A stretch of DNA of 64,000 nt, from contig CM106585.1 in assembly GCA_048013815.1 (NCBI GenBank), positions 4,030,001-4,094,000 on the forward strand. The letters run 5' to 3'. This DNA is from Setoptus koraiensis. Lineage: Eukaryota; Animalia; Arthropoda. Both the position numbers and the translations under genes were made by a program. How positions within the stretch are numbered: position 1 is the first letter of the stretch; every line of letters starts with the position of its first letter. Below the pieces are notes generated by a model that saw nothing but the letters and a program-made list of their open reading frames with translations, had not been told where the DNA came from and searched no databases. Of the stretch, positions 1,896 through 36,574 are shown piece by piece.

Positions 1896-2967
1896 CTTGT
1901 GTTTATATATGTATGTGTGTGTGTGTGTGCTGTTGTCGAAGTGGGGCGTGGGCGCCTCATACATGTGCGCCATTATCACTACATACTGTATACATTAATG
2001 ACAGTATCGGCACGCGAAGGCTCAAAGCCCGGCACGTCCAATCGTTCAAGGTAACAGAATAAGCGATGATTTGCTGACCTCGAATTGTGTGCGTGCGTGT
2101 GTGTGGGCACATCCGATGGCCTATATTGGTAGTGGTGGGGGATATGATCAATGAGACTCGCCACTTGTATTAATAAGACGTAATAATGGACAATAGCGTC
2201 AGGTGAGGATTATCGATCACTTGGCCAACACCATTATCAGTGTTCACACTGAATGACACTCTCTGCCTGCGATGCGATCATATCCAATAACTCGAATAAG
2301 AAGTAACAATAATGAATAATATCAAGCTTGCACGTAGCACATTATCATTACTGAATGGGGCCGTTTGTTCGAAAGTATTAATGATAGGGCCGAAGAAAGA
2401 ACATAATCACATCATTGACCACTGTCATCAGTCGCTGAAAGGATTCTTGTTTACACGCTAGAATAATGATGGACAGTAATAATATCAGCATGCTCACTGC
2501 ACCTAATCAAGCCGAGTCATAGTTTGCGAAAATCAAATATCTGACGAATCATAGCCAAATATTCGCTGCAGCTTTTCTTTTATTCTATTATTCTCTCAAG
2601 TTGAGGACAAATCAACTTTGTTCATCAGTGCGAGACAGCGTCCGTATCTATTATCAACATGGGGCTACTTGTAATCGTCGGAAAATTTGATAGCTCATCG
2701 CATCAGTAAACTATACGAGTTATCCGAGTTGTCGTCAAACAAAAACACGCAATTATTCTTCTGATATCATCCTGATTCCGACAGTTGTTTACTTTTTTAG
2801 CTGTTGATTGGTACTAGCCTGATTATAGTGTCAATGAGACGCTTTTGAGTCACTTCTCAGGAATGTCTCAAATTGTACTAATAAAAGGATGGCCCGCTTG
2901 AGTACAGATGCATCACACCTCACTAAATACCAAATGGAGGTAGTCAACTTGCCGGTGCTGTCACTGG

Positions 2968-5106
2968 TCATCCCAAAAATCTAGTTAGATAATTCACGGC
3001 TCCAGAGATTAATTCGACAATTTTCTGGATGTTGGTAGGCTCAGGAGTAGACCAGTTACCTGAAATCAAATTCTCATATTGTTCATCGGGGAGACGCAGT
3101 TCCTTGATGCGGCCTATCAAAGACCTTACCCATTCTATGTACCTAGGGTTCGATGTATCGATGCCTTGATCTTTTCCGTGCAATACTGTTGCCTCTTCAA
3201 GATCTGTTAAGCTGGATAATCGAAGTGATAAACATTTGTTGACGACATCGATTACTTGTTTATTCTGAGTACAAAACCTTTTTTTATCCTCTTCCCGTAC
3301 ACAGTTGAGGCTGAGATTTTTCGGCGTGGCACTGAGTATTGCTAGAGCAATCAAGCGTATTGTAGGGATATGAAAATAATTAATAAGTAGATAGCACCCC
3401 TTTGCTCTAGCCCAATCCGGATCGTTTTCCTTTACATCGTCGTTTTTGACAATCAGAGCTTTAGCTAAGATCTCATCTACGCTTCTTCGAGGGAGCCATC
3501 GATTTTTGCTGATTATTTTTTTATTGAATTTTCCCCCCATCGGGGATTTAAATTCAATAAGAGAAAATTTATGACTACAGAATTCAATTTCTTCCATGCA
3601 ATCGTATATATTAGAATGCTCGTTGGTTTGCTTGTTTTTTCTTGGCATGCCGATACTGTCCATAAATTTGGCCCCAATTTCAGCATATTTCACAGCATTA
3701 TCTTTGCTCATTATTATTACCGAATCATCACCACTGATTTTGCCTCCATAATTTATCGAATGACCTCTGGTCAAGCATTTCATTGTCCAAGAATGCATGT
3801 CATTTACTTTAACACCTTGACTATAAGCAGCTCGGGACATTGTTACAACAATATTTGTGATGGTGTTCATTGAGTAAGTTACTCTTCGACCGGAAGCGAC
3901 TTGCCCTTGTTGACGAAAGATTACCCATTCGTTTCTGCCCTGATCATCTGCTGGTCTCTCTATTTTCGTTAGAGGATACGCATACAGTCTATACATGGCA
4001 TGAATTTCTTTTTTGTAACTCTCGTCACTAGTTAGTAATTGCAAAAATTGAGCTTCCATGCACAACATCGAGTAGCTGACCTTTGTGTCCCACCCGGAAA
4101 CGTCATCGCAAACTGCCCTGGCACTTGGTATTTTCGTAAAAATATTGTTGAGTTCTTCACCATAGTCAGTTTGAGGTACTCCACTGATACTATATGGCAA
4201 TTCTTTCAACAAAGTGTCCAAGTTACCAAATAATTGATTTTCGTATATCCTTGCAGTGCCACATAGTGCCCAAATAAGTCTGCCTTTCTTGACGGGCCCT
4301 TGCGTCGGTTCCTTCTTAACCTCTGGCTTTGGACTTAGGCTAAAAACACTGGTCTTCGATTTGCCCATCAGTAGACAGTTCTTTAAATCTTGAACTCTTG
4401 GCTTCCAACAATCTACGTCGTTAATGTACTCCTCCATAGAGTCGTAACCAAGTCTTGGCCAACCAAGAGATCCTTTCTTGTTTGTTTTTCCTATGACTTC
4501 ATTGTCCGTTAAACGTCTCAATTCGCATCCACGTTTCTTGACAAGAAAAGACGCTATAGCTTTATAGCATTGCCACATTCGCTCAAAATGTTCATGATGT
4601 TCACAAGGCGCTTTGTCTATTTTAGATTTGACGATTGCATAGGAATCCCTTGGATCATCAGATGTGATCTGCCATTTTTCAAAGTTTTCTATCAAAGGCA
4701 AGATCGGTTCAACGATATTGTGAATCAATGCACTCTTTCGCGTTGAGCGCTTACTCTTTTTCTTCTTCTTCTTTCCTTGATGGATTCGACCGATCTCCAC
4801 AAGAAATCCGGTCTCTTGGGTGATAGAACTTAGCCACGCGCTGGACTGATATCCGCTTTCAGCGGCAGAGATAGATTCTATCTCTTCATTAATGTCGAGC
4901 ATAGCAAGCTTAGTCACGCCAACCGGCAGAGTTCCTATCGACGGCCATTTTCTTCTGACCGTGGGATATTTGTTGCCAAAACCCGTAGTGTCTACATCTT
5001 CCATCTGACATACTACTACCGGTGGCTTGCTTTCGGCGGTGCCCGGGAGAAACCATTTTTTTGCTAACTTGATCACAGTCAAAATCGATTTTCCCAGTGG
5101 GGCCAT
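2968..5106 (-). CDS. NS5: Endogenous viral element: jingmenvirus-like (Flaviviridae-related) NS5 RNA-dependent RNA polymerase, intact 712-aa ORF without the methyltransferase domain
   Basis: Flavi-type RdRp motifs in the correct order: G (KGSLGW), F (KPEVKK...KGRLIW), A (DDVSGWD, 4087-4107), B (QVASGRRVTYSMNTITN), C (SGDD, GDD at 3724-3732), E (EFCSHKF), thumb (PRRSVDEILAKA; LINYFHIPTIRLIALAILS). YRLYAYP, GQVASGR, DYGE and NYFHIP resemble jingmenvirus segment-1 proteins as I recall them more than classical flavivirus NS5. First ATG is 5106 (context AAAATGG); the ORF track start at 5145 is a TTG. Confidence 0.93.
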   Translation of the reverse strand: MAPLGKSILTVIKLAKKWFLPGTAESKPPVVVCQMEDVDTTGFGNKYPTVRRKWPSIGTLPVGVTKLAMLDINEEIESISAAESGYQSSAWLSSITQETGFLVEIGRIHQGKKKKKKSKRSTRKSALIHNIVEPILPLIENFEKWQITSDDPRDSYAIVKSKIDKAPCEHHEHFERMWQCYKAIASFLVKKRGCELRRLTDNEVIGKTNKKGSLGWPRLGYDSMEEYINDVDCWKPRVQDLKNCLLMGKSKTSVFSLSPKPEVKKEPTQGPVKKGRLIWALCGTARIYENQLFGNLDTLLKELPYSISGVPQTDYGEELNNIFTKIPSARAVCDDVSGWDTKVSYSMLCMEAQFLQLLTSDESYKKEIHAMYRLYAYPLTKIERPADDQGRNEWVIFRQQGQVASGRRVTYSMNTITNIVVTMSRAAYSQGVKVNDMHSWTMKCLTRGHSINYGGKISGDDSVIIMSKDNAVKYAEIGAKFMDSIGMPRKNKQTNEHSNIYDCMEEIEFCSHKFSLIEFKSPMGGKFNKKIISKNRWLPRRSVDEILAKALIVKNDDVKENDPDWARAKGCYLLINYFHIPTIRLIALAILSATPKNLSLNCVREEDKKRFCTQNKQVIDVVNKCLSLRLSSLTDLEEATVLHGKDQGIDTSNPRYIEWVRSLIGRIKELRLPDEQYENLISGNWSTPEPTNIQKIVELISGAVNYLTRFLG

Positions 5107-5739
5107 TTTCTCACAATCAGTAATCTTCAAATGCGATAAACCCAAGTTAAAAAAATATATACAATATACAAATATGATAATACATACAAATGCGTTCGAT
5201 TTATGTCAACAGGTCTTAGGTTGACCACTCATAATACTTCATCGCAAAAAATGCAATATTTCATTCGCGTGTCACCAAATAAAACAATTTACTTAAAATG
5301 ATGACTCATTCTGCATTCTATAACTTCCAAAATTAGCTTTACATAAACCGTCTAACCCTATCATATTCACAGACAATAGATATTAATAAACAGAATATGA
5401 CGTGGCTTTGTTTATCTTCAATCTGTCCACAGTAGTTTGTTGATCTAATCAACTCCATCCATCTGATTCACTTTTATTGCTCTAGATTAGCTATAAAAGG
5501 CTTGTCAATCGTCGTGCAACAATTGATAGACATACAGATCGTGTTGTTGATGCTTCTCGAACAATCCGCTCTATGTGTCCTCTTGCCAGTTCAAACTTCG
5601 CAAGCAAGTGCTAATTAGTGTATTTTGCCGCATCTAGGTGGAATCATCATTTTGTCAGTGTCTCACCGATTCTACCAACATAGTTCACGGTATCAACCAC
5701 GCATATCAGCAATTCGAATCTATTCAGACGCTGCTCACT

Positions 5740-5789
5740 GTGGTGTTTTATTAGTTAATTAAATAGTTAATTAACTAATAAAACACCAC
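5740..5789. repeat. Perfect 23-bp inverted repeat with a 4-nt loop
   Basis: GTGGTGTTTTATTAGTTAATTAA (5740-5762), loop ATAG, exact reverse complement TTAATTAACTAATAAAACACCAC (5767-5789). Confidence 0.95.
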
Positions 5790-6211
5790 TTAGTTCATTA
5801 AATATCAAATTGTAAGTACTCAAGATCGACCACTCTAGCCTCTCATCATGTTTCATCGGACATACTTTTCGAATTAACTTGATCTTTAATTATGTTTTAG
5901 TTCCCTCAACTCTATTTATGCTCAAATGGCCATTTTGATGCTTGGTACTGGTGTTGAAAATAAATTGATACCATTCGACAGAATAGAAAGTTTCGTTTAC
6001 TTGCATCGAATTGGTATTGAGATGAGACGTATTCTTTTACAAGACGTCAGAATTGGTGGTCGAAACCACTCATGATTATTTTTCCTAAGTTCATAACGCG
6101 AGATTTTTCGTTTTTCACCTGTCGAAATCGTGCATATCCAGGTTATTTTATATCATTACTCAGTTTTTTCCTAAAAATAGACTACCCACCTAACAAGATA
6201 TCTCGATTAAC

Positions 6212-6683
6212 ATGTCTGTATTTCGGTTACCGAGCTCGATATTCATTGTAGCTTGTATTGGTAGCTTTATTTTAAACAACGAAGCTCCTCCAACACAAGA
6301 TAGGACCATGTAAAAAAATTAATGTGTAGAAGGTCGCGAACAATCGATTCAGTGGACGAATTCTTAGACTTCAACAATGATTTGGAACTAGTACTAGCGC
6401 ACAGTAGAATCAATCAACAAATAATCGCGCAAAATATCAACCAATGTACGCGGAATGCTGATAGTCTGAGGGATTTTGGAGAATTCGAGCACATTGTGCA
6501 ACTATTGGAAGAAATTTATTTCGTTTGTGAACCATATTTTAGCAGCAAATTTATCGATTAGTTTTTTGTGATCATGCATTAGTCTAATACATCGGGCAGC
6601 GCTTGATTGAGGGCTGTCGTGATATCAAAGGCAGAGTTTGTCTGGAGGTCTACATTATGTTGCGACATTTATGTCTAGCTCTA
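6212..6683 (+). pseudogene. Degraded paralogue of the secreted protein at 51151-52227
   Basis: ATG 6212 gives MSVFRLPSSIFIVACIGSFIL (compare MSVNKVLSFLLIVGVVSCFL), then TAA at 6311 and a frameshift. Frame 6322-6561 CRRSRTIDSVDEFLDFNNDL...INQCTRNADSLRDFGEFEHIVQLLEEIYFVCE aligns by eye with CKDRVKSLDSVSKFIEFANEL...IDDCLNSYDGVGDVREMKEMVQALPTYHSVCE. Further stops follow 6559. Confidence 0.7.
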
Positions 6684-6863
6684 CCATTGTATTCGGCCAA
6701 TATCGAAGGTCAGTAAAACAATAGAAAAGTTGTTGCGATATATGGAATTCTTCAATTTCACGGAAATAAGGTCGAAGGGAGATGGTCCAACAAATGTTTG
6801 TAAATATTTAATCAAAAATCTGAGTTAGTTTATTGACTGTGATTAATAAACTATAATTTCAGT

Positions 6864-9800
6864 CTATAATACATTATCACCGTTCATTATGAGCATGACC
6901 TGTTGAAGCTTAGATGACAGTTTGCCTTTTCTGGAGAATTCATCTTCTTCTAAGGTCTGTATAAGTTGCTCTTTGTATTTAATGGCATATTTGTAGAGTT
7001 CATTCAAAGAGACATTAGTGTTGAACTCATGTGCATGCTGGCGAGATTCCTCGGCTAGCATAGCATTCATATCATGTTCGCTTATCGGAGGCATCATTCC
7101 AATATCATTATAATACCTCTCTACCCAATCCTTGTATATTGGTATGTCTTTGGCATAGAGCAACTTGCTGCTAGGAGAGTCCTTGCCCAAACGATGTTCC
7201 GATGTCGAGCAGGCATCCATAAATGTTTGGGCAACAACTGACAGGCACGAGTCCACAATATTGGCTTTGTTGATGTCGAAAACAAAGTTTGGATTCTTTA
7301 TGAGGTTAACCCAGAATCTCAGAGGTAGACTGTTGGATTTCCATGTGTGAACAACTTCGGGGTCCGTTATTCCTGTTTATGAGAGATGCAAGATGCGATA
7401 CATTCAGTTAGACTATCTGTTCTAAAATACGAAGGGGAGTAGTTTTGCCTTTGTGAGAATCAACAACTTACCATGACCTCTGGCCTGATCATCTAGAAAA
7501 TCGAACATGTATTTTATTGCCAAAGGCAACGAGGATCCTCGACCTGCAGTGCTAAATATCGTCTCAAAAAGATCATCGACAAATCGCTGAAGAGTTCCTT
7601 TTGTGGCTAGTAGTCTCGTTAGGTAAATTTCGCTAACCATTTTACCCGATCGCTCGCCCTCTTTGTAATCATTATCGTGGTGTCTCACTAAATGCCAATA
7701 CTTGCATCCATTATCTGCATCGTTGTTCAGAGGTGATGTTGCTCTGCTCATGGGAGGCGAGCACGTTTTACCGAATCCAAAGTTGAGTGTTTCATAACGA
7801 TGCTGCTTATCATATTTATCAGACAGTATTGTTAGATTATATAGCGAATTCTGTCGTGTGACAAGCGTCAGGTTAGCTCCATCTGGGACTCGATAGTGAG
7901 CCAAAGTATTCAATCTTCTCCACTCTCCTTCCGATTTGGAGGTATGATCTTCGTCCGACATGATGATTCTAATTGACGCGTTCGCTCTCCACTCTATGTC
8001 CAAGCTCTCTTTGGAAAGTCTCTGTGAATAAGGTGTACTCTTGTAGATGGCATCAATTGCTTTTTCTTTGACTTGACTAATAGTGTCACAATCCAAAACC
8101 TTGACTGGAGTCTCCAGGTTATCTGTTTGGAGATCCACTCCGGAGAGGTATGCGGTTTGCGTGGATATTGAGACGAAAACTGTCATAGGCTTGTAATCGA
8201 TAGACTGACGGATGAGCTTCTCCTCTGACAGAGAACATCTGGCTTCATTAGTAATAGAATCGACAGGTCCCTTATTCACTTGATGTTTAATAGACTGGTA
8301 CATGAGGAAGAGAGGTTCACCGGCACATTCTCTCAGGAATTTGTAGAGTAAGAATGTGAACCAGGATGAAAGCATTTTTTCAGCCACTGACTCAGTCCTT
8401 CTTAATAAGAGTTTTGGGTGACTACGGCTTTCCATGCTCTTTTCAATTAATTCTGCCAAAAGTGTTTTTAGAATATCAGTACAATATTCCATTTTCCCTT
8501 GGAGGGTTACCATAATCAAGGAGGCTACGTTCACTCTATCGCGCATGGAAAAGTACCTGTTTGATTCTAATGTTCTGATGAAGAGGAGCAAGAATGTTTT
8601 GTTCAGCATGAGCTGTCCAAACAATCGTAGACCAGTCTCGAGGTTAGCTCGGATGGCAGGATCCACCTGCATCTCACTCAATACCGGATGATCGTCCATG
8701 TTTGGAAACAGAACTTTCATGGTATATATTCTGTAATCTAAGTACGGGATTCCACCAGCTTCTAAATCGTCCGTCAGATCTGTCATTTCCGTCTGTAATT
8801 CGGTGAAAGCTTGTTTGGCCTCGCTGGCTACTTTCATCTCAAGAACGTCCATTTGTTCTTGCATTGTCTTTACAACACGGTTGCTTTCACTGGTCTTGCG
8901 CTTGTAAGCGATCAGTATTACTATGACTACTACTATCAACAGGCAACTACCAATTATCACAACTAGAAGTAATGGTTTAGGTAATACTCGATCTGCAGCA
9001 TTCAAAGAATCATAGCTTAGTTTTCCGATGGTAAAGTTAAGCGAATTTCCAACCGTGACAGTGACATCAGGCAATTTACCAACATCTATGTTTCCTTGCC
9101 ATGTTAAAGCCGCCGGTTGGGTCGGCGGGGGTCGACAAGTTAATTGAGTACGACTTAATGAAGTTACGTTGCATATACCATTGCCAATTTTCACGATCAC
9201 ATCGTTTTCTGAAGAGGCTCTATCTAAATTTTTACCATTGATTGTAAGGTAATCACTCTTATAGTACTTTATATGACTTTCTTCAGGGAACGGCTTGTAT
9301 TCTGGATTAACATACATGAGGAACATGGGCAAACGGTTTACTTTACGACTAGCCAAATTATGTACGCTGTCTACATGATCCATAATAAAACCGTAATCCA
9401 GCTCTATTGGATCTTCTGCAGATGTTTTGAATGGGTCCAATTTCTCTTGAGGCACTGCTGGGCTGGCACACTTCATTTCAGTGGAGCTGTCGACATTACA
9501 TTGGCTAATGTATTTGACGCCATCCACTATTACGTACATTTTTGGATCTTGTATACACATAAGATTTTTTCCTTTCACATAAACGTTGATACCACCAGCT
9601 GGAATACCTCTAGGTTGATTCAGAGTGTTTCTAGATGAAGTGCCCTGAGTTGGATGACTTGATGATACATAATCGACTTCAGGATCTTCAACATATAAAA
9701 AGTTGTAGTCAGGAAATGATCTTAGACCGTTGTCGAATCTTATTGATACTGCCTGCTGTTCAGATTTATCACTGCGACTAGTAATACATTCAGCGACGTT

Positions 9801-12800
9801 GTGTCTACGAGATGTTATCGTACATGGAGATGAGCCAACTTCTGCTTCAGCATGAGATCCCGCGTTCATATCTATGCCCCATATAACAAGCTTAGTGCCA
9901 CCAGACCTAGGGCCTTTACTTGGTATAATAGACAATAGTTTGGGATTTACGAAGGTATATTTTTCCTCGGAACGTGCAACATAATCGTTTGTTACCCGAA
10001 CCACGATTTGTGCTGATACTGGGGATAATGATACTGGGGATAATATCTCTTCAGGAATCGTAGAGTTTAATGGCCCTCCAACCTGACAAGTTATCTGGAC
10101 GGTCTTGATGTACAGTTCCTTGAATGGATTACAACTGATGGTTCCGATCATGGCATCGGCGTGGTATAACTCTAGAGAGACCCCATTTTGAATATCCTCG
10201 AAATTTCTACCTAAATTAATGCCTTTAATAGTAATATTAGTCCCGCCTTCATAAGGTCCTGTTGCTGGTTCAAATGAATGTATTAGAGGATTGGGACAAG
10301 TGTCAGAACTTGTCAAGAACATTGGCTGTGAAACGCGGCAATGATCCTGAACCTGACAAGATTTAAGATCTTTGCACCAGCCACATCCATATTTCTCGGG
10401 TAATTCCAGACAAAACCCACAGTTTGAGGCCATGGCGGAGCAGGAATAGACTGATATGTGAATATTATCGGGATTGTCCAGCGGTTTACTTCCGTCCCAT
10501 ATAACAGCGAAAGCCGCGGAGACATTCGGTGTGCTAGCGCTATAGGTAAACTCCATTGGATCACAATAGACAGTTTCTCCGAGTAACTGAGCATTGACCT
10601 GTCTCACTCGACCCTCAATGTTAAATTGACATACAAATCTATTGGTGACTATGGCAGGAGGTATTTCGTAGACCTGCACCTGGATTCGTCTGGGCAGCCC
10701 GGATGAAACAAGAATTTCGTTTGATACTCCGTGATTATTCTGAGTTGTGTTAACGCGAGGACAAAACTTGGGCCCTGATCGAATGCTAGGACCGATTGAC
10801 TTGACGCCAGTGACTAGAACATCATTGCGACAATTTTCGCCTGTGTCATGAGTGCACCTATGACCAACAACACACCAATCACATGGGTATGGACTAGACA
10901 CACATTGAGTACATGTTGTGTAGGAGCTGCAATCGAAAAAGGTGAAGTTTGTGGCCACAAAGTCTGGTCCCTGATGTATTCTCACAGATAGCTTTGTTAC
11001 AATGTCGTGACTTAATAAGCTGGATTGAGGTAATATGTCTGTTGGCGGTGTTGGACATGTGACTCCTGATACAGATCTACTAGCACTAGTTATTTCTGTT
11101 TTTCCCTGATTGGCAAAAGTAAATGCACATAAAATTTGTCCTTCAATTTGAGGCAAGTTGTCGATGGCCAAGGCCAGTGTTCGGGTAGTTGTTCTCTGTA
11201 TTTGCGCCGGATTGACACTAGTTATCGTTGTGCACTTTCCACTTCTGTAAGATAGCCAGTATAGGGCATCTTGAGTAGCTCCGACGCAATCACTTCTCAA
11301 GGAGCATTTGTTTTCTAGCGAACACCAACCACAGTAAGGATTGTGAGCCCCCAAACATTCGGAACAAGTACGATGCATGTTACATTCTTGAACTCTGAGC
11401 AATACAACTTTCTTTTCATTCATGGCGTAGATATAACTGGCTGAGTCTCCGCTCTTATCAAGTCTCATGTCGGCACTGATGGCGAGCCTCTGCTCAGGAT
11501 CAACAATCGAATCCGAGTATTCAAAGGCTAGTCTGGCATCTTCAATCACTAATCTTTTCAAGTGGCCGTCTGATGTGCCTAGGAAAGCTACAGTGAAATC
11601 GTATGTTGGGCTTGCTACCACTGAGGTCAAAAGAATGTTGGAGTATGTCTTAACAGGACTCGTTTCTATGGGAGAAGATCCACTGATGAAATTGTTGACA
11701 TCCATACCGCAAAAATCATCGGTAATTTGCACTTGGGTGGGTATGCATGATTCAGTTGGACTCAGAAAATCAAGACCTTGGTTCCCGTAACCATTGAAAC
11801 AGTGTTGGATGTTTTGAGTGAAAGTCCTATGGACGTTTGGTAAGCCATAGACACACATGGCTGAATTGTGGCTTGGCTCATTGAAAATATCACGTTCATC
11901 CTTGGATTTTGCAAAAACAACAAATAAGACCTCATCTGATTGTGAAATACCCATTGAAATAGCTAGGTTGGTTCCGGGTGTGCCGACATAAGCAGCTTGA
12001 GCAAGATTATAATCAATTCCGGATTCTGTCCTGCACACAAGAGGTACTTCAACATAGGAATGATAATTGATGTCTTTTTGGCAAATCCTGATTAATTTTG
12101 ATATGAATGGCCTAGGAGAAGATGCCGATTTTCTCTGAACAGTAAGGAAGTAAGAAAATCCTCTAGAGGCAAAACCATAAATGTAGTTGATAGGAAATCT
12201 TTCACGTGACAATGAATTTATAGTCAATCGTGTTCCAGAGGCGACGTTAGAAGACGCAAATGCAAACATTGATTCGGGATGCAGTGATCTACTACTGACA
12301 GCCGGAACTTCATTATGATACAGTCCATTTCCTGGATATGTTGAGCCAACATATAACACAGGTTGTTGTCTAGATAAAGATTGCTTTGTAGGCCCTGGCG
12401 CAATATAAACAACTGTGGATGCTAATGGATTATTGGCAACAACAGACTCGTTAGATGGTAAGTCAAAATTAGTTATATTATCTAAATTATGCAATGCACA
12501 TGATCCTTGAAATGATGTTCCACATGATATGAGGTAAGATGCTTGTTGAGTTTGAAAAATGACCAATGCCTTGTTGTAATAAGGCAACAATCTCCTTTCG
12601 TTATCGGCGCATGTTCTAGATGAATAACACTCACTAAATGGTCCCATATCCACTTGTGCCTCTAGTTTTAGACTAGGAGATAATTGATAGATTTTATTTT
12701 TTCCACCAACAAAAACCTGACCGGTGTGTTCGTTAACAATTAATTTAAGTAATTGAGCTTCTGGATCGTTTGGTTCCCAAAATGTTGGCGATGTGATCAG

Positions 12801-13391
12801 TTTAGCAGAATGATGTGGCAATATTAGTGGTAAAGGTGGTAGCGATTGATGTTGGTGTAATAATGCCGTTTGTTGGAAATCCGATGGAAAGCTATGTGAT
12901 TGATATACCATATTTAACACAAAGAGGAACAAAAATATCAAAGAGACTATGGGTGGTGGACGGTTAAACAAGTAACATTTTAGAAGATTTGATGATGAAG
13001 ATGGTGGCCTTTTTGGATTCAACCATTGGTAAAGGAGGCGACGGCTTTTAGTTAAATGACTCATAGTGATATGCTGATAGTTTTTTTGCAAATAGGTATC
13101 ATCATGTGTATAAGTAGTAATAATATCTTGGTGGTTGTTGTGATGGTGGTGGTGGCGGTGGCCTTGGCAATTGATAATAATATTTTGGTTGATCGGAGTA
13201 TCTGATTGACTACTGGTTGTTGTTGTTGCTGATTGACACACTGGAGGCTCACATTTCTTTTTCTTTTTCCTATTGTAGGCCATATTGTTATTATTGTTTA
13301 GGTCTAAATGTGCAGGATTGGTTAGCCGGCATGAGGAAGTGGTCCAAATAGGAGTGTGTTCCCAGGCTGTGGTGGCACCATTGGGTGGCAT
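6864..13391 (-). CDS. PlexA: Plexin A (semaphorin receptor); exons 13391-7472 and 7372-6864, one 99-nt intron
   Basis: Sema domain, PSI repeats (CGWC...C), IPT repeats, TM ([26 protein letters not shown]) and cytoplasmic GAP domain ([12 protein letters not shown]). GTAAG donor at 7471 and AAACAG acceptor at 7373 restore [29 protein letters not shown]. Start is uncertain: first ATG 13391, alternative 13064 nearer the hydrophobic signal segment. Confidence 0.95.
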
Positions 13392-16300
13392 GGTGAGGTT
13401 GGTGAGTGATGTTGGTGTATGTTTGTGTGTCAATCAATTGTTGGACCCAATAATGGATTGGTGATTATGGTATTTGATGATGTTTGATTGCTGTTGCAAT
13501 ATGTGAGGTTGTTGTTTGTAGTAATTTGAGAGTGATAAGACGACGAAATAGACATTCTACTACAATGATTTGATTACTGATAAATCATGCCTGATAGATT
13601 TTTCAAAAAATTGATCAATTGACGATAATAATAATAATTCTAATGGCAATAGTGATATAATATAATAGAACAGAATAGTGCGTTCGTTAAATTTTGGAAC
13701 ATCTGATTGTGATTGTGTGTGTGTGTGTGCTCTTGGGTGAGAGAGAATGTATTGTTGTTGTTATTATTATTATGTTTTGTTGTCGGGAAGGATTGGCTAA
13801 ATTGCATGATGACTCCTTTCGTGATAATAGTTGTTGTTAGACATAGTTGTTTCACAGTATAGTGTTGTTGTTGATGTTCACAATTACTGAATTTGATGCA
13901 ACGTTTACAACGCCCTGATTGGTGGCATCTAGATAACACATTAGTGGCTTTGTCGGCATTGGTGGCGGCGATACAACAACAGCAACGCACACACACAGTG
14001 TGGCGATAATGCTAATTTGATAATAATAATAATAATAATGCAACAATTTCCTGATATTTGTTTGAATGTTCTCTGTGTCTCTCAATTGTGAATGGTGCTG
14101 CTGGTGCCGAAACAATGCTATTGATACGAATTGTTGTTGCTCGCTGCGGAATTGAGACCTCTCTGGTTTGATTTTGTCTTTGTTTTGGCTCGAGGTTGCT
14201 ATTGTTGCGCTATGAGCATTGGCTAATCAGCAACGGCGACGATTACATTGTTATTATGTGACATTGTTGCAAAGACAACAACTTCAACGACAACTGACTT
14301 GTGAGACCAACTCATCGTCTTCATTATAAATAGTAACCATTGTCTTGTGGGGCTAGCAGCGAGCAGTGATTGTGTGTGTCGTCGTCATTATCTGTCGGTG
14401 TGTTGTTGTTGTTGTTAATTACTATCTTATTGTCGTCGTCGTCGTCGTTTGCAACATCATCAATTTTTTGACTTTACTTCACTTTAATTTTATCATTTGT
14501 CTCACAAGTGATAACAGCGCCGCAGCGAACAGTAAACAGTATCGATATTGTTGTTGCCGTTGTTGTTGTGCTTGTGCAATGTTGGGCATGCCAAGATGAG
14601 CGCTGGCCGCAGTGGCTGTTGTAGTTGCTGCTGTTGTTGCTGTTGCCGTGTTGTAGTCGCTGCTGTAGTTGCTGTTGCAGTTGTGGTGCTGCCGTAGTTG
14701 CGCTGGCGACGACTGTGCGCTGCAGTGTGCGCTGGCAATTCGCTAATAGTGGCTGCCAGTTCGCTACTAGTGCCAGCGAGTGTGTGTGTGCGATCGTCAT
14801 CAACCGTGTCTTCCCCCTCGTGTTCATTGTAGTCGTCGTTCGGCGTATGTGAACGCACACACACACACACTCAAGTGCGCTATTCATGGCTGGGCAGCTC
14901 TCTTACGCTCTACTGCCAAGTGTGCCAGTTCTTCACTCGGCCCGTCTGTCTGTTTCGCCCCCAGCGCGCGCCCGTCTGTCTGCCGTTCGAACTTTGAACA
15001 GTTCGGCTCGCACTGTCCGCTCGTTCGCTTGTTCGCTCGTTCGCTGGTTTGTTCGCTCGCTTGTTCGCTGGTTCGCCAGTTCGCCTGTCCGGTTCGCCAG
15101 TCTCGCGCTTTTGTTCTATCCTCCAGCGGTGTGTGCCGCGCACAAATTGTTCGGTGCACACACTGTGCATTCACACACCGAGGGAGAGTGTGCGAAATTG
15201 CGCACACACTTCACACTGTGTCACAGCGTCGTGTGTGTGTGTGTGTGAGATCAGTGGCGTAACTGTGCCGACCCAACCCTGACCAGCCTGACCTGACCAA
15301 CACTGACTGCCCAGCAGGTTGCTGGCCGCCGCCGCCGCTGCATCACACAGCATAGGTTACGTAATGACGGCCGCTGTCACTCTTGTTGTGCGCCCACCCA
15401 TCTAAATTATGCCCCACTCATTTCGTCATTCACTTAGATTGGTCGCTGTCATGCCTCGGCCGCCATGCGTCGGCTACCTGTGTCTACCTGTCGACGGCGC
15501 AACATGATTGCCGCAGTTGTTGCTGTCGTTGTTGTTGTTGCTGTCTTTGTTGTTGTTGTTGCTGCTGTCGCTGTTGTTGTGTCGTCGAGGCCGCTGTCAA
15601 AAAAGTATCTGCGCTGGCGTGCGTTTGTTTGTGTTGGCCGATAATCTCGTTTGCGCGTACCAATTGCCAATGTAAAACGGCTGCCAACAAGCAGGCAGGC
15701 AGGCGCACAGGTGAGTGTCGACGTCACAACGCCTTATCGTTCAATCGCATCGATTTGGGCTGACATCGACATAGCGCACACAGCCGACGCTGAAATTGAC
15801 TCGCTCGCTACAGCGAGCGGCTCGCTGAATTTTGATTGATACAATCAGCTGGCTCATCACCGGCCCGACACAACAATGACATGACGTTGCGCTGCGTTGT
15901 GCGGCCACAGCGGACAGCGCCGCCACAAACATAAAGCGGCCAGGTGAAGGCCGTACCAAGACGAATCGAGCCGAAATCGAGTCGAAATGTCGTCGGACCG
16001 CCGCCGTTATTTGATTATCGCCAGTTCAATTAGGCAATTGAAGATAACGGTTGTTGTTTGGCGAAATTGTGCAGTCGAGCCAGGGTATTGTTGCCACCGT
16101 TATTGTGTTTTGAGCCGCGCTTATTACGCTGTCTGGCTGGCCGGTCGGCCGACCGGCTATTATGTCGTTGATGATGTTGTCGTTGGTGGATATAATTACC
16201 AATGGGCACGATCAGTGGCGAATCGCACACACGCCGCTCGACGCTGGCAAATATAGCGCCCAAATATCTCGGCCGTCTGGGCGCTATCAAGTGACGCCAA

Positions 16301-31588: not shown

Positions 31589-33461
31589 AGACAGTGTTAA
31601 CGTTCGGCAGTATGACTGACAAAGTCAACAGAACAATGTTTGTTGGCCCGTCGGCGACGACACAGTTTGTCTAGCAATCAGTCAGTTTGTAGATCTAAAT
31701 CAAGGTCTCGAGCATCATCGTGGATCGATTGTGTGCGTGCCTACATGTTGATATCGCTGCTCATTATCATATTATCATATTGCACACGGCGCATTGGCAG
31801 TGTGAGCGGGCCAAACAATCATTATCTTGACACTGTCATCTAAACACTGCTCATAACACTGGCTGTAACACTGGCTATAACACTGGCTATAACACTGGCG
31901 ACAGTAATGTAATATAATCAGCGAGACACAAAGCCAGTCGCTGTGCAATCAATCGCTGTCAATCGTCACAATTGTCCCATATGGCGCCAACAACAACAGC
32001 AGAATAGGTATTTGTCGTTTGCCGGCCGGGTATTTGTCGTTTGCAGCGACGACAACCTTGAGCTTGTTGCCACTAGCGCCGTGCGAGCCAGCTAGTTGCG
32101 ATAAGACGCAATAGGACGATTGAAGATCGTTGCAGTTGACGTGCTCTCACATTACGCAATGTGGCTCGCAATAGCGGCCAAATACAGCGTTTTACTGCTC
32201 AATGCGCCGCTGTCTCATAGCACAGATTCATGGCTCTATGTCTATGTCGAGATCTCGTGAGCTCGATACACGTAGACGAGCCACAGACGAGCCATTGTCG
32301 GCGAGCGACTTGCGCTATTTGTGCGATATGTCGCCCGGATTAAAATGTTAAATAAACTCATGTTACCACGACATGTATCGAGCTTGCCAGTCGTGTGAGC
32401 CGCTCGAGCGGCTCACACGACACCTTTGGCTCGCTGGCTCGCCGCCGTCTCGTTTCGCGACATTGTCAGCCAGTTCCGGCTGCGGTTCCCCGAACTGTGA
32501 CTATAATTAACAATTGCAGCGACTATTGGTTCGGCGCGGCGCGGCGGCCTTGTTGCCGCTCTTGTCGCTGATTACATAACAAAGCGAGCGTGCAATATCC
32601 GATAATGATTGTTTGTTTATCAGCACTCGCTGTCTCTGTCTACGTACTGCACCAAGACTGCCATTGAAGCCAATGTTTATTTGGCGCGCAAATAAGCAGC
32701 ATTGGCACAGAGTGCGCGCTGTTCGTCGCGTGAGTTTGCTGGCTCGGCGCACTCGTCTCGGCACAATGGCGCGTCTGGCCGGCGCACATGCGCACGCCAA
32801 AACAATACATAACCATATCATTAAAAACCCCAAAATAAACATGTGCGTGCTGGCCGGCGAAAAAAGCGCCGGCACAGCGCGCTATCGACAGCTAAATCGC
32901 AGGCTGTGCGCGCCCGGACGTGGTGCGCAGACTCTGTGCCTAGCGCTCCGCGATGCCTAGCTAGTGCAATTTGCGAGTTGACTCGGTAAGAGCGGCGGCG
33001 GCGCCATCGAGTAAACTCGCAAACCATAGCATTACTCATATATCGCATACTAATATCGCAATTGGCAAGACCGACATCTGCTACACTAATGAGGCTAACA
33101 CATGACTGCGAAAAAGATTTATTTACTATATAAATCACGGCCTTTCGAGACAAAAACATCACACACCAACTGTCTGTCAGAGCGATCACACTGACACACA
33201 CAACGATATTTGTCAAACTTCAAACAAAATTTTCAACAGCGACACGCCAGCGACCAAAAGCAACCTAGCATCGACCATCTAAATTACAGTATCATCGACA
33301 ACGGCACCCAGCCAGACTCGCATCGACACATCAGACAACAATACACTCGTTAGTTTGAATTCATCTGTGTGGGCTGCTTCAAGCCGAGATTAGCGGTTAG
33401 TTTTAGTTTAATTATTATTATTGTTATTGTTAGGCAATTTGGCACTTAATAGGCAATTAAT

Positions 33462-36400
33462 ATGCACACAACAATAGCGGACACCAACGGCGACATGGGA
33501 GATATGGGGCCCATGAGCAACGGCGAAACCACAATTAGCGAGCACGGGGAGGCCTCCCTGGGCAACGGACAGCCGACAATGACCAACGGACACACTCCTC
33601 AGGACGCTCAGCCGGCTTTGGTGGGCGCCATCGACCAGGGCACAAGCTCCACGCGATTTCTGGTGTTTGTGGCGGAAACGGGCGAACTGGTGGCCCACGA
33701 TCAAATTGAGATCACCAAAATTGTGCCTCAAGAGGGATGGGTAGAGATCGACCCGATGGCCATCATGAATTCCGTGTACAAGACCATCGAGACAGTGGAG
33801 CAGCAACTGAGCTACAAGCACATCGACATCCGCCAAGCGGTCAAGTGCATCGGTATTTGCAATCAGCGCGAGTCCACCGTTGTGTGGGACCCGGTCACCG
33901 GCGTGCCCCACTACAACGTTATTGTTTGGATGGACAACAGGACCAAGGACATCGTGGACAAGCTCATCGACTCGGTTCCGGGGCGCGATTTCAACTGTTA
34001 CAAGGTGAGTCGTCGTGTGAATCTCTCGACCCAACTCTCAAATCCGACGCGCTTTTTGCCGATTCTTCTCGTTCATTTTTTGCTCATTCTTCTTGATCAT
34101 CTTTAGCTGATTCTTTTCACTCATTTTCATTAATTTTTATCCACTCTTCATCAATCTAAACAGAGCAAAACGGGCCTGCCCCTGTCCACCTACTTTTCGG
34201 CCTTCAAGCTAAAATGGCTGCTCAACAACGTGGAACAAGTGCGAGAGGCGGCCAAAAACAACAGGCTCATGTTTGGCACTGTCGACACTTGGATCTTGTG
34301 GAATCTGACGGGTAAACATTTGACTGACGTCACCAACGCAAGCCGCACATTCCTGATGGACCTAGAGACACTGCAATGGGACAGAGAGTTGTGCAAAAAG
34401 CTATCCATTCCAATGAAGTTATTGCCCGAAATCAAATCGTCTGCCGATGACTTTGGTCGCATCATCCACGGCCCCCTCACGGGCCTGCCCATAACCGGCG
34501 TCATTGGCGACCAATCGAGCTCGCTAATCGGACAAAATTGTTTGAGGCTCGGACAAACGAAGGCAACTTTCGGTGAGTGAATACGTGAATACGAGTGTGC
34601 AAGCACTTGCGTGGCTTCTCAATCTCTCGAGCTATCTCAAGTGTGTATTGATGTCGAGTGTTTCACAAGCTGCCTCACATACGTCACTAATCACGTTAAT
34701 CAGCTAAAATCAGTAGAATTGCTTAGCTAATGTTTGCCGAAACAACAACACTTGTTATCGCATCGGGCCAGCTGACAATGGCGCTTATATCTCGATACTA
34801 ATCAACAGATATTAATGACAAGATCAAATGATCCAACGACACCGGCACAAACAGCACACGGTGTCATTTTATGTAGATTGCGCTGGTTGTGGATTCTCTG
34901 GCATGATTACGTGAACAGTTTGCCAGCCAATATTCACACAATTACTCATTTGTGTGAATATCAGTAATTAGAGTTGCAATTTGACACACACACACACACA
35001 CAATCGAGCTTGTTTGTTTAGTGGATTCGCGGCTTGCGATCTCAAGTGGCAGATAATCACAACTCTTCGATGTGTGACCAATAACATGCTAAGTTGGCTG
35101 AATTTTAATTAATTGCCCGGCTTATCTCGCAATGCAATCTGGCGCGATCAGCAAGCGATGTCAATGTTTGCCGGCGGCATCTATTCCTGCTCGCATTAAA
35201 CTCGCAATAATATTCGAAATGATACTCGAAATGATGCTCGCAATGATGCTCGCAAAGTGACTGCTCACACGCTAATCTCCACTTGAGACGCTCGGCAAAT
35301 ATCGGCGCTCCAAGTGGGACAACACTGAACAATGGGACCTGTTTGATCGTGTTGCCCTCAGCAACGCATTAGCATACGTTAGATCCGACGAGATTAGTTG
35401 ACCAGTTCGGGCCGGTTCGCTCGGTGTTTGTCTCTGACCGTCAGAGTCTGGCCGTCAGAGTCTGGCCGTCAGAGTCTGGCCGTCAGAGTCTGACGTTAGC
35501 TCGATTGATTTTGAATCGAGCTAACGTCAGCGAGTCCCAATCTTAATTTCCAGTCACATGTTTTGCCGGTGTCACATTTGTGCGCGTGAGCCAGCTTAAA
35601 TGTCGCACCACATTACAATTTGCAATTCGCAAACATGAACTGACTCATTTTTTTATATTTTTACATATGTTTCTCATACACATCATGTTTGTCGCACACC
35701 AGGTACGGGATGCTTCGTCATGCAGAACATCGGCCCGGGGCCCCTGCACGGCGCCCTCAAGAACGTGTCGCGAAAGGCCAAACGGGGCCTCATCACGACG
35801 GTCGCGTACAAGCTCGGCAACAGGCCCGCCTGTTACGCCCTGGAGGGCAGCGTCAAAATAGCGGGCGCCGCAGTCACTTGGCTCAGGGACAACATGGAAT
35901 TGATTAGTGATTATCAAGAATGCGACGAACTGGTCAACAAGACATCACACTCGGCCGGTGTGTTCTTTGTGCCTGCCTTCGGTGGATTATATTCGCCCTA
36001 CTGGGACCCCAATGCCGCTGGTCTGTTTATTGGTTTGTCTCAGTTCAGCCGGAAGGAGCACATTATGCGCGCAACACTGGACTCGATTGCCTTTCAAACG
36101 AACGACATTTTATCCGTTATGCGCGGCGTCACGCACGGCCTCATGATAGACGGGGGCCTGTGCAACAGTTCCAATATGTGCCAGATTTTGGCCGACGTAA
36201 CAGGCTGTGATATTGTGCGTCCCTCAATGACAGAAACAAGTGCCCTGGGAGCGGCCATGCTGGCCAGTTTCGGCGCCGGCCTATGCGACCTGTACGATCC
36301 CCTCTGTAGTCCGGCATCAATCACCAACATCAACGACAACAGTCCCAAGGCATTGATCAAAGAAGCGGAAGTTTGTCGGTCGCAAATATCGTCAGAACAT

Positions 36401-36574
36401 CGAGAGGATCTGGTTGATACCTGGCATCAGGCCGTCAAGAGATCAATGAGATGGAACAAAGATGTTGAGCCCGAGCATCACGATTATCAGCGTCTGTCGT
36501 CGTTGCCCATCACCATGTATATTTTGCTGTCGCTTGGCATGACAGCCCTAAGTGGATCCATTGCACAGGTGTAA
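33462..36574 (+). CDS. GK: Glycerol kinase, copy 1 (FGGY family); exons 33462-34004, 34164-34572, 35703-36574; about 607 aa
   Basis: AIDQGTSSTRF, NQRESTVVWD, GTVDTW, TDVTNASRT, GDQ, KATFGTGCF, ALEGSV, VPAFGGLYSPYW, DGG and a C-terminal hydrophobic tail. GT-AG sites keep the frame (introns 159 and 1130 nt). Confidence 0.95.
35438..35492. repeat. Intronic tandem repeat, about 3.9 copies of CCGTCAGAGTCTGG
   Basis: Three perfect 14-mers plus a 13-nt partial, inside intron 2 of GK copy 1. Confidence 0.9.

Follow-up and report, generated by a model that had tools for sequence, protein, structure and literature searches.

DNA derived from segment 1 of jingmenviruses has been described in several arthropod genomes, including the endogenous jingmenvirus polymerase (EJP) elements of Chironomus and Gerris (Bamford 2022, PMC9752770) and the segment-1 endogenous viral elements (EVEs) of Ixodes ricinus and I. 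pacificus (PMC9501327, PMC13155725). As far as the accessible text of these sources goes, the elements are either short (table values 248 and 45) or near to living viruses (>76% nucleotide identity to Alongshan virus), and no mite element, loss of the methyltransferase (MTase) domain or long-kept family of open reading frames (ORFs) is described; the word "mite" is absent from the main text of PMC9752770 in its accessible form. Outside the jingmenviruses, the bat endogenous bornavirus L gene eEBLL-1 is reported to be intact, under selection and transcribed (Horie 2016, PMC4865735, accessible part). Here we describe a gene in a 64,000-nucleotide stretch of Setoptus koraiensis DNA (assembly GCA_048013815.1, contig CM106585.1, positions 4,030,001 to 4,094,000; hereafter the window, whose own numbering is used throughout) that encodes a jingmenvirus-like NS5 polymerase. 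No jingmen EVE that is MTase-less or comes from an eriophyoid turned up in our literature search, whose reach excluded most subscription papers as well as the supplements of PMC9752770 and PMC13155725. The gene is an EVE and a candidate domesticated gene, and we read its product, P0001 (other P-numbers and L007 denote relatives), as a co-opted, soluble, non-capping RNA-dependent RNA polymerase (RdRp), with a probability of about 0.5.

A jingmenvirus-type polymerase without its capping domain

The ORF is intact over 712 codons on the minus strand (2968-5106), running from an ATG at 5106, in a good start-codon context (gagaaaATGG), along a stop-free frame down to 2968. Its assignment is supported by Pfam, by a PDB match and by a structural model. 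P0001 matches Flavi_NS5 (E 1e-18) and Flavi_NS5_thumb, both above the cut-off, and its Pfam matches are to viral RdRp families only, with no cellular RNA interference (RNAi) RdRP domain among them. Its best PDB match is a jingmenvirus RdRp (E 7e-77), and the nearest sequences, at 41%, form the Plasmopara viticola lesion-associated Jingmen-like virus 1 cluster (P0002/P0014). An AlphaFold2 model built from a 13-row alignment (mean predicted local distance difference test score, pLDDT, 79.7) best fits the RdRp structures of Jingmen tick virus (JMTV) and Alongshan virus (Foldseek E ~1e-41, template modelling score 0.82-0.86 by target length), and its top match in a library of viral structures is the NS5 of a segmented flavi-like virus.

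In the alignment, motifs A, B, C, E, F and G all match their viral counterparts, giving an intact ORF with catalytic motifs, the state expected of a domesticated RdRp. Motif A (DDxxGWD; 4087-4107, minus strand like the features that follow), motif B (SG...T...N; 3865-3894) and motif C (SGDD; 3724-3735) are intact. Motif A carries a serine at residue 337, and the motif F region (4267-4344) keeps its conserved K, E and R with a glycine at 275, both as in P0004 and P0005. The thumb priming-element region (3268-3321) has diverged: the priming-element tryptophan found in 44 of 45 viral rows is missing from P0001 and P0005, and is kept in P0004 and P0006. In dengue virus, two conserved aromatic residues of the priming element matter for initiation (Wang et al., accessible part), and we take the tryptophans considered here to correspond to them. 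Judged from its sequence, P0001 would resemble the jingmen RdRp domain in its working and is not a complete NS5.

The capping domain is lost. A first-pass annotation of this DNA had noted that no MTase-like ORF lies upstream of the gene, and Pfam, tblastn, profile and frame-length evidence bear this out. Pfam detects an FtsJ-like MTase in P0002, P0003 and P0007, and none in P0001. A tblastn search of the whole 64 kb with 22 jingmen-like MTase domains revealed no MTase (best E 0.29), none of its top 15 matches falling within 5107-6863, and an MTase hidden Markov model (HMM) reported nothing in the six frames of the window; as a positive control, two of the 22 queries recovered MTases at E<=1e-3 from fetched loci, 33 and 34 of them respectively. 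No stop-free frame in 5107-6863 is longer than 85 aa. An MTase exon was found nowhere in the window by tblastn, HMM or frames. About 25 nt upstream of the ATG, a T-rich tract is followed by an AG that may be a splice acceptor in the 5' untranslated region.

The annotation was also right that the ORF begins about 50 aa before the RdRp N-terminal element, since KWPSIGTLPVGV occupies aa 53-64 (4915-4950). Homology starts with the end of the linker and the RdRp N-terminal extension (aa 53-71, 4894-4950, minus strand), close to the boundary of the MTase-less JMTV construct D307, which, according to the accessible text of PMC11014250, still synthesises RNA, with more short intermediates. The ~50 residues ahead of it (4957-5106, minus strand; pLDDT 26-44) are new and unalignable to viral MTase, and the profile alignment begins at aa 51. 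The first 52 aa contain a look-alike, TAE...D.DTT, that was considered as a relic of the MTase and rejected, because in comparisons with three viral MTases these residues are equalled by 22-291 of 300 shuffles. A hydrophobic N-terminal segment is absent as well, the maximum 19-aa hydropathy of P0001 being 0.95 versus 1.67-2.63 in seven of seven viral proteins.

Chromosomal setting and host

The gene is a chromosomal, non-retroviral EVE, that is, virus-derived sequence between non-viral host flanks, at host-level depth and in more than one sample. Three sequencing runs were compared, of which X1 may be the source of the window and X2 and X3 give identical figures, making one further sample. In X1, a single contig spans 1939-5632 at a depth of 105.4 and the contig carrying the neighbouring plexin gene has a depth of 112; the two meet inside a 30-bp repeat, so the join between RdRp and plexin rests on the assembly. 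The ORF thus sits in host-depth sequence and not on a ~3-kb RNA segment, and the intergenic DNA is covered evenly, in runs whose library types are unrecorded. The locus is also present in X2/X3, where 3482-3577 is uncovered and no indel is listed in the covered ORF. Neither a poly(A) tail nor a target-site duplication is evident in the flanks, and the GC content at third codon positions (0.41 versus 0.37-0.71 in host ORFs) leaves the insertion undatable from composition. X2/X3 differ from the window by ~2.2% over 1939-3481 and by <0.3% over 3578-8500, which suggests a divergent haplotype block ending within the RdRp ORF. A 38-base match of 3231-3268 to a multi-copy contig was taken as chance.

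Upstream lies a nearly intronless host plexin A gene (6864-13433, minus strand). In a 45-row tree its cytoplasmic region clusters, at 100% support, with that of Fragariocoptes setiger and 25 further sequences, apart from other mites and chelicerates, and because of this grouping the host likely belongs among the eriophyoid mites. The ~25 plexins of the Fragariocoptes group (within P0015-P0044) come from 6-67 kb contigs and probably entered plant sequencing runs as by-catch from eriophyoids. A dispersed repeat at which contigs break (5595-5917, strand unspecified) is also found upstream of the RdRp gene and contains a perfect 23-nt inverted repeat (5740-5789). Both ends of this repeat occur at another locus with 477 different bases between them, and at position 5757 all three runs (X1, X2, X3) have C instead of A.

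MTase-less relatives and a second copy

Relatives were gathered by a word-indexed search (12 proteins) and an exhaustive one (105), from which we compared 49 near-full-length proteins: P0001, 8 from the word-indexed search, and the 40 of 650-1150 aa among the exhaustive search's next 48. By a profile partly built from such proteins, an MTase is present in 44 of the 49. The five without it are P0001, P0004 (749 aa), P0005 (731 aa), P0006 (691 aa) and P0146; this last one has Leu as its first residue and lies on a contig of 2,253 bp, so that it is likely a 5'-cut fragment. P0004, P0005 and P0006 are encoded on contigs of 7.9, 8.2 and 17.9 kb, compared with ~3.1 kb for the viral segments. Mutual identity among P0001 and these three is ~41-56%. 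In three of the four, homology to the full-length viral profile sets in at position 300-302, where the MTase-RdRp linker ends, and in the remaining one at 272; the N-termini ahead of it are mutually dissimilar. P0004 keeps a hydrophobic N-terminal segment as in viral NS5 with the MTase absent, as if it had been deleted internally.

P0001, P0004 and P0005 stand together in all four trees (96/98, 87/84, 90/85 and 94/92, the last with the fragment P0194), and all four MTase-less proteins group at 97/95 in a 24-row tree without insert columns. P0001 joins P0002/P0003 at 100/99, 97/96 and 99/97, inside the segmented flavi-like viruses, the sister group being the Plasmopara viticola lesion-associated Jingmen-like virus 1 cluster together with an Amarillovirales sp. 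From these sequences P0001 likely belongs to an old, MTase-less, co-opted family. A search with a four-protein profile returned the same 12 proteins as the word-indexed one. Weak pattern searches of viral contigs and prokaryote genomes, for which P0001, P0005 and an alignment of the four proteins served as queries, found no member of the MTase-less group, and neither did the pattern CDDV[SQ]GW in IMG/VR. A jingmen-like RdRp fragment, P0202, is annotated on a 166-kb contig of the nematode Teladorsagia circumcincta and is likely another EVE.

A second copy of the gene is present on a 4,022-bp contig in X1 (depth 100.6) and an 808-bp contig in X2/X3. It matches 4030-4121, around motif A, with 12 differences in 92 bases (~13%); among the five listed differences, two are silent and three produce two conservative changes. 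The 30 loosely matching bases on each side are, by eye, in frame, stop-free and similar to P0001. Judged from this short visible stretch, the second copy is closer to the window gene than P0004-P0006 are.

Altered constraint without decay

All four MTase-less proteins keep the motif A aspartates, motif B, the GDD and the motif F arginine, and P0001 retains 76 of the 93 columns that are invariant in 7 near viruses, at a background identity of 38%. Virus-conserved cells are nevertheless changed in 33 of 236 cases in the four, whereas a set of 19 viruses has 51 changes in 1157 cells (Fisher p 5e-7, for cells that are not independent), a departure of ~3x the viral rate with no stop codon. Positions 275 (motif F) and 337 (motif A) are changed in all four and fixed in the 19 viruses; S337 is found in P0001, P0004 and P0005, and none of 45 viral rows has S or Q there. 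Neutral decay sufficient for the excess departures of P0001 (8-14%) would give 3.7-6.7 stops, so that finding none has a probability of 0.025-0.001; retention of the ORF is strongly implied.

The index-finger loop and its basic tract

The first-pass annotation had further proposed that about 55 extra residues, with a tract resembling a nuclear localisation signal (NLS), separate two elements that lie close together in NS5. Neither the size nor the proximity holds: the interval D71-W145 measures 74 aa here, and every one of 48 relatives has 57-70 aa between these anchors, most of them 60-61 aa, with 57-67 aa in all 29 relatives with letters there in a second comparison (one row being empty) and 65 aa in four orthoflavivirus-like rows. 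The net excess in P0001 is ~14 aa. About 10 of these form an insertion at aa ~78-87 (4846-4875, minus strand; pLDDT ~51) with alignment-dependent edges, D71-G106 being 35 aa versus 22-31, and ~4 lie at aa ~107-110 (4777-4788, minus strand), directly before the basic tract, G106-N130 being 24 aa versus 20-22.

The basic tract itself, KKKKKKSKRSTRK at 4735-4773 (minus strand), was confirmed as aa 112-124 (pLDDT ~52), where it stands in place of the conserved index-finger loop. It is unusual: G106-N130 holds 11 K/R versus 0-6 in 48 other proteins (0-7 among the 29 others of the second comparison), and the tract has 10 K/R in 13 aa, versus a maximum of 6 in 11 other ORFs of the window. Its alignment with the index-finger loop of the viruses, which in Jingmen tick virus is itself basic (KIAKKKGSEGTRK), needs no gap, and it maps to residues 354-365 of L007 (a 914-aa tick-virus protein). 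In the JMTV crystal, by the accessible text of PMC11014250, the equivalent residues (359-361) could not be resolved, and the same text places an NLS helix in the index finger of flavivirus NS5. As a sign of remodelling, the NLS-like insert is a weak argument, for the tract, exceptional as it is, is mostly a substitution in a loop that all relatives possess. Nor does it define the remodelling, because the other MTase-less relatives are without it (K/R at the tract position: P0004 0, P0005 3, P0006 2). AAG accounts for five of the tract's six lysine codons, which resembles a small repeat expansion, and the most plausible reading of the basic loop is that it changed late, in this copy only, on a surface that is flexible. 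The classical monopartite NLS core K[KR]x[KR] is present in this exposed flexible segment, but it also occurs once or twice per protein, at other places, in all 10 relatives tested, and thus discriminates little by itself. That the loop serves as an NLS for nuclear or nucleolar import is a tentative suggestion that we hold to be somewhat less likely than not; it may instead, or as well, add RNA affinity as an RNA-binding patch.

Proposed role and competing explanations

Remodelling for a host role, as the first-pass annotation proposed, gains from the MTase-less relatives, the second copy and the altered constraint without decay, while its NLS argument is weak. Under co-option, segment-1 RNA would have been reverse-transcribed and integrated; the capping domain and the membrane anchor would then have been lost because, as we propose, they are needed only for viral replication, with selection retaining the catalytic core. 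We infer the age, expression and activity of such an enzyme, which would copy viral, transposon or host transcripts into double-stranded RNA (dsRNA) for processing by Dicer and AGO/PIWI proteins, acting against viruses or transposons. A changed priming element favours primed over de novo starts in the hepatitis C virus and dengue polymerases, and the diverged element of P0001 might, by analogy, do the same. As to the silencing machinery, the eriophyoid Aculops lycopersici has Dicer, expanded AGO1 and PIWI/AGO3 and no identifiable RdRP, and its authors suggest RdRP loss in Eriophyoidea (PMC7738191, accessible part). A more elaborate version, in which eriophyoids that had lost the cellular RdRP domesticated a jingmenvirus polymerase once as a silencing amplifier and this copy became nuclear through its lysine loop, we consider improbable.

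Several observations count against co-option. The link to RNA silencing is circumstantial, RdRP loss having been reported for another species than this one. The four-member clade reaches only 68/66 in a 17-row tree, is unresolved in a 31-row tree (18 of the 49 rows dropped as near-redundant) and is not recovered after the addition of five fragments, because the MTase-bearing P0225 then sits in a polytomy beside P0006. A value of 92/97 that goes with the 31-row tree refers to labelled rows only and lends the four-member clade no support. (The P0225 cluster is an MTase-bearing relative on three 2.5-kb contigs, all of which end at 503 aa, at motif G.) Some group members are possibly broken, since P0194 (101 aa, 903-bp contig), which belongs to the MTase-less group, ends just after motif E and may be broken or cut. 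No protein labelled as eriophyoid, F. setiger included, is among the 12 matches of either the word-indexed or the four-protein profile search. In the wider set, residue 275 (S) differs in 2 of 45 viral rows and residue 337 (A) in 3 of 45, and the distant tick virus L007 loses 19% of the near-virus-invariant columns, compared with 20% for P0001. A comparison of X1 with X2 gives 12 single-nucleotide polymorphisms (SNPs) in the last 170 codons, 4 of them silent and 8 changing an amino acid, three further ORF differences lying outside the listed SNPs; with pN/pS ~0.57 (p 0.27) and a SNP density over these codons equal to that of flanking DNA, current selection is not significant. The lost priming-element tryptophans and index-finger GS could equally mark a failing enzyme.

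Several of these points suit a different history, in which segment 1 of an unsampled, divergent lineage of mite jingmenviruses integrated repeatedly with 5' truncation, leaving young insertions that are functionless or serve small RNAs only, the ORF being open because it is recent and the odd residues having arisen in the virus. A pN/pS not significantly below 1, an unstable clade with a short member (P0194) and the commonness of jingmen polymerase EVEs in ticks and insects (PMC9501327, PMC13155725 and PMC9752770, accessible parts) all agree with it, as does the distance to the nearest viruses, which at merely 40-41% identity imply an unsampled source lineage. Repeated young truncation sits poorly, however, with four of four complete MTase-less proteins starting at the domain boundary behind a new, ATG-led N-terminus, with conserved-site changes at ~3x the viral rate on branches just modestly longer than those of P0002/P0003, and with a second copy that is ~13% diverged over its best 92 bases yet in frame where visible. 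The IMG/VR pattern search, which recovered no member of the group, points the same way, and we regard this history as rather unlikely.

The common boundary and shared residues would also follow from a single loss in an exogenous MTase-less virus lineage, cap-independent or with its MTase on another segment, in which case P0004-P0006 would be viral and the window gene an integrated copy. The viral-NS5-like hydrophobic segment of P0004 fits such a lineage, and P0004-P0006 are represented here by their proteins and contig sizes alone, their orthology and age being putative, which tells against co-option too. Contigs of 8-18 kb far exceed ~3.1-kb segments, though; the MTase is present in 44 of 45 viral rows, the exception being a likely fragment; the four N-termini are mutually unlike; and the weak pattern searches of viral contigs brought up no group member, so that we think an exogenous lineage very improbable. 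A protein kept for binding, not catalysis, is the remaining account: a dominant-negative decoy that engages viral RNA or helicase, or host RNA through its basic loop, and blocks jingmenviruses. Loss of capping, anchor and priming aromatics would cripple viral replication and leave binding surfaces, and related MTase-bearing viruses to be blocked exist (the P0002 cluster, Plasmopara viticola lesion-associated Jingmen-like virus 1). A decoy need not, however, keep its catalytic aspartates and motifs B and F, as all four proteins do at ~41-56% identity, and specific interference is less likely at ~40% identity to known viruses; a decoy role seems to us improbable.

We retain a co-opted polymerase as the preferred reading. 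The polymerase of a positive-strand virus, cut back exactly to the catalytic domain, present more than once and related at ~45% identity to others of its kind, would be a strong candidate for domestication, the more so in a lineage with extremely streamlined genomes and scarce junk, one species of which is reported to be without a cellular RdRP. The interest rests on the MTase-less family, the NLS-insert claim alone being modest. Whether an animal can co-opt a viral RdRp, be it to silence RNA or to defend itself against viruses, can be put to a direct test with this gene; under the more elaborate version above, an animal RNAi enzyme would have been replaced by an unrelated viral one.

Other genes of the window

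Elsewhere in the window, a cluster of orphan ORFs occupies the minus strand (47061-47618, 49334-50200, 51151-52263, 53003-53563 and 54503-55315). Most have signal-peptide-like starts by eye, two are near-identical duplicates, and the four tested have no Pfam match; they may be proteins that a plant-feeding mite secretes, or salivary ones. On the plus strand there are two FGGY-family (glycerol-kinase-like) genes with introns (33453-36574 and 44458-46484), and between them is a 2OG-Fe(II) oxygenase (37933-39516; EGLN-like by eye) with long poly-Q tracts.

Comparison with known systems

With jingmenvirus NSP1/NS5 (JMTV 8WIL/8WIM/8WU2, Alongshan 8WU3), P0001 has the RdRp fold, the linker/N-terminal extension and motifs A-G in common, and the index-finger loop is basic in tick jingmenviruses too, if less strongly. 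P0001 differs in being chromosomal, in having neither MTase nor hydrophobic N-terminus, and in its ~14 extra aa, diverged priming element, G275 and S337. The EJP and Ixodes elements are, by the accessible accounts, likewise segment-1-derived DNA in arthropod genomes, and differ in the points given at the outset. A toti-like EVE is listed as co-opted in planthoppers (PMC10636211). Cellular RNAi RdRPs of mites, nematodes and plants are alike in nothing but the proposed role of making dsRNA for silencing: they have a double-psi barrel fold, whereas the window gene encodes a viral right-hand fold outside that family. A further parallel is eEBLL-1, which, in the accessible part of its description, is also a viral RdRp ORF that has stayed intact in the genome of an animal, catalytic motifs included, and is proposed to be co-opted. 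It derives from a negative-strand virus, is full length, and has orthology, selection and transcription demonstrated, whereas the window gene, known from DNA alone, derives from a positive-strand flavi-like source, has cleanly lost its capping domain and exists in at least two copies.

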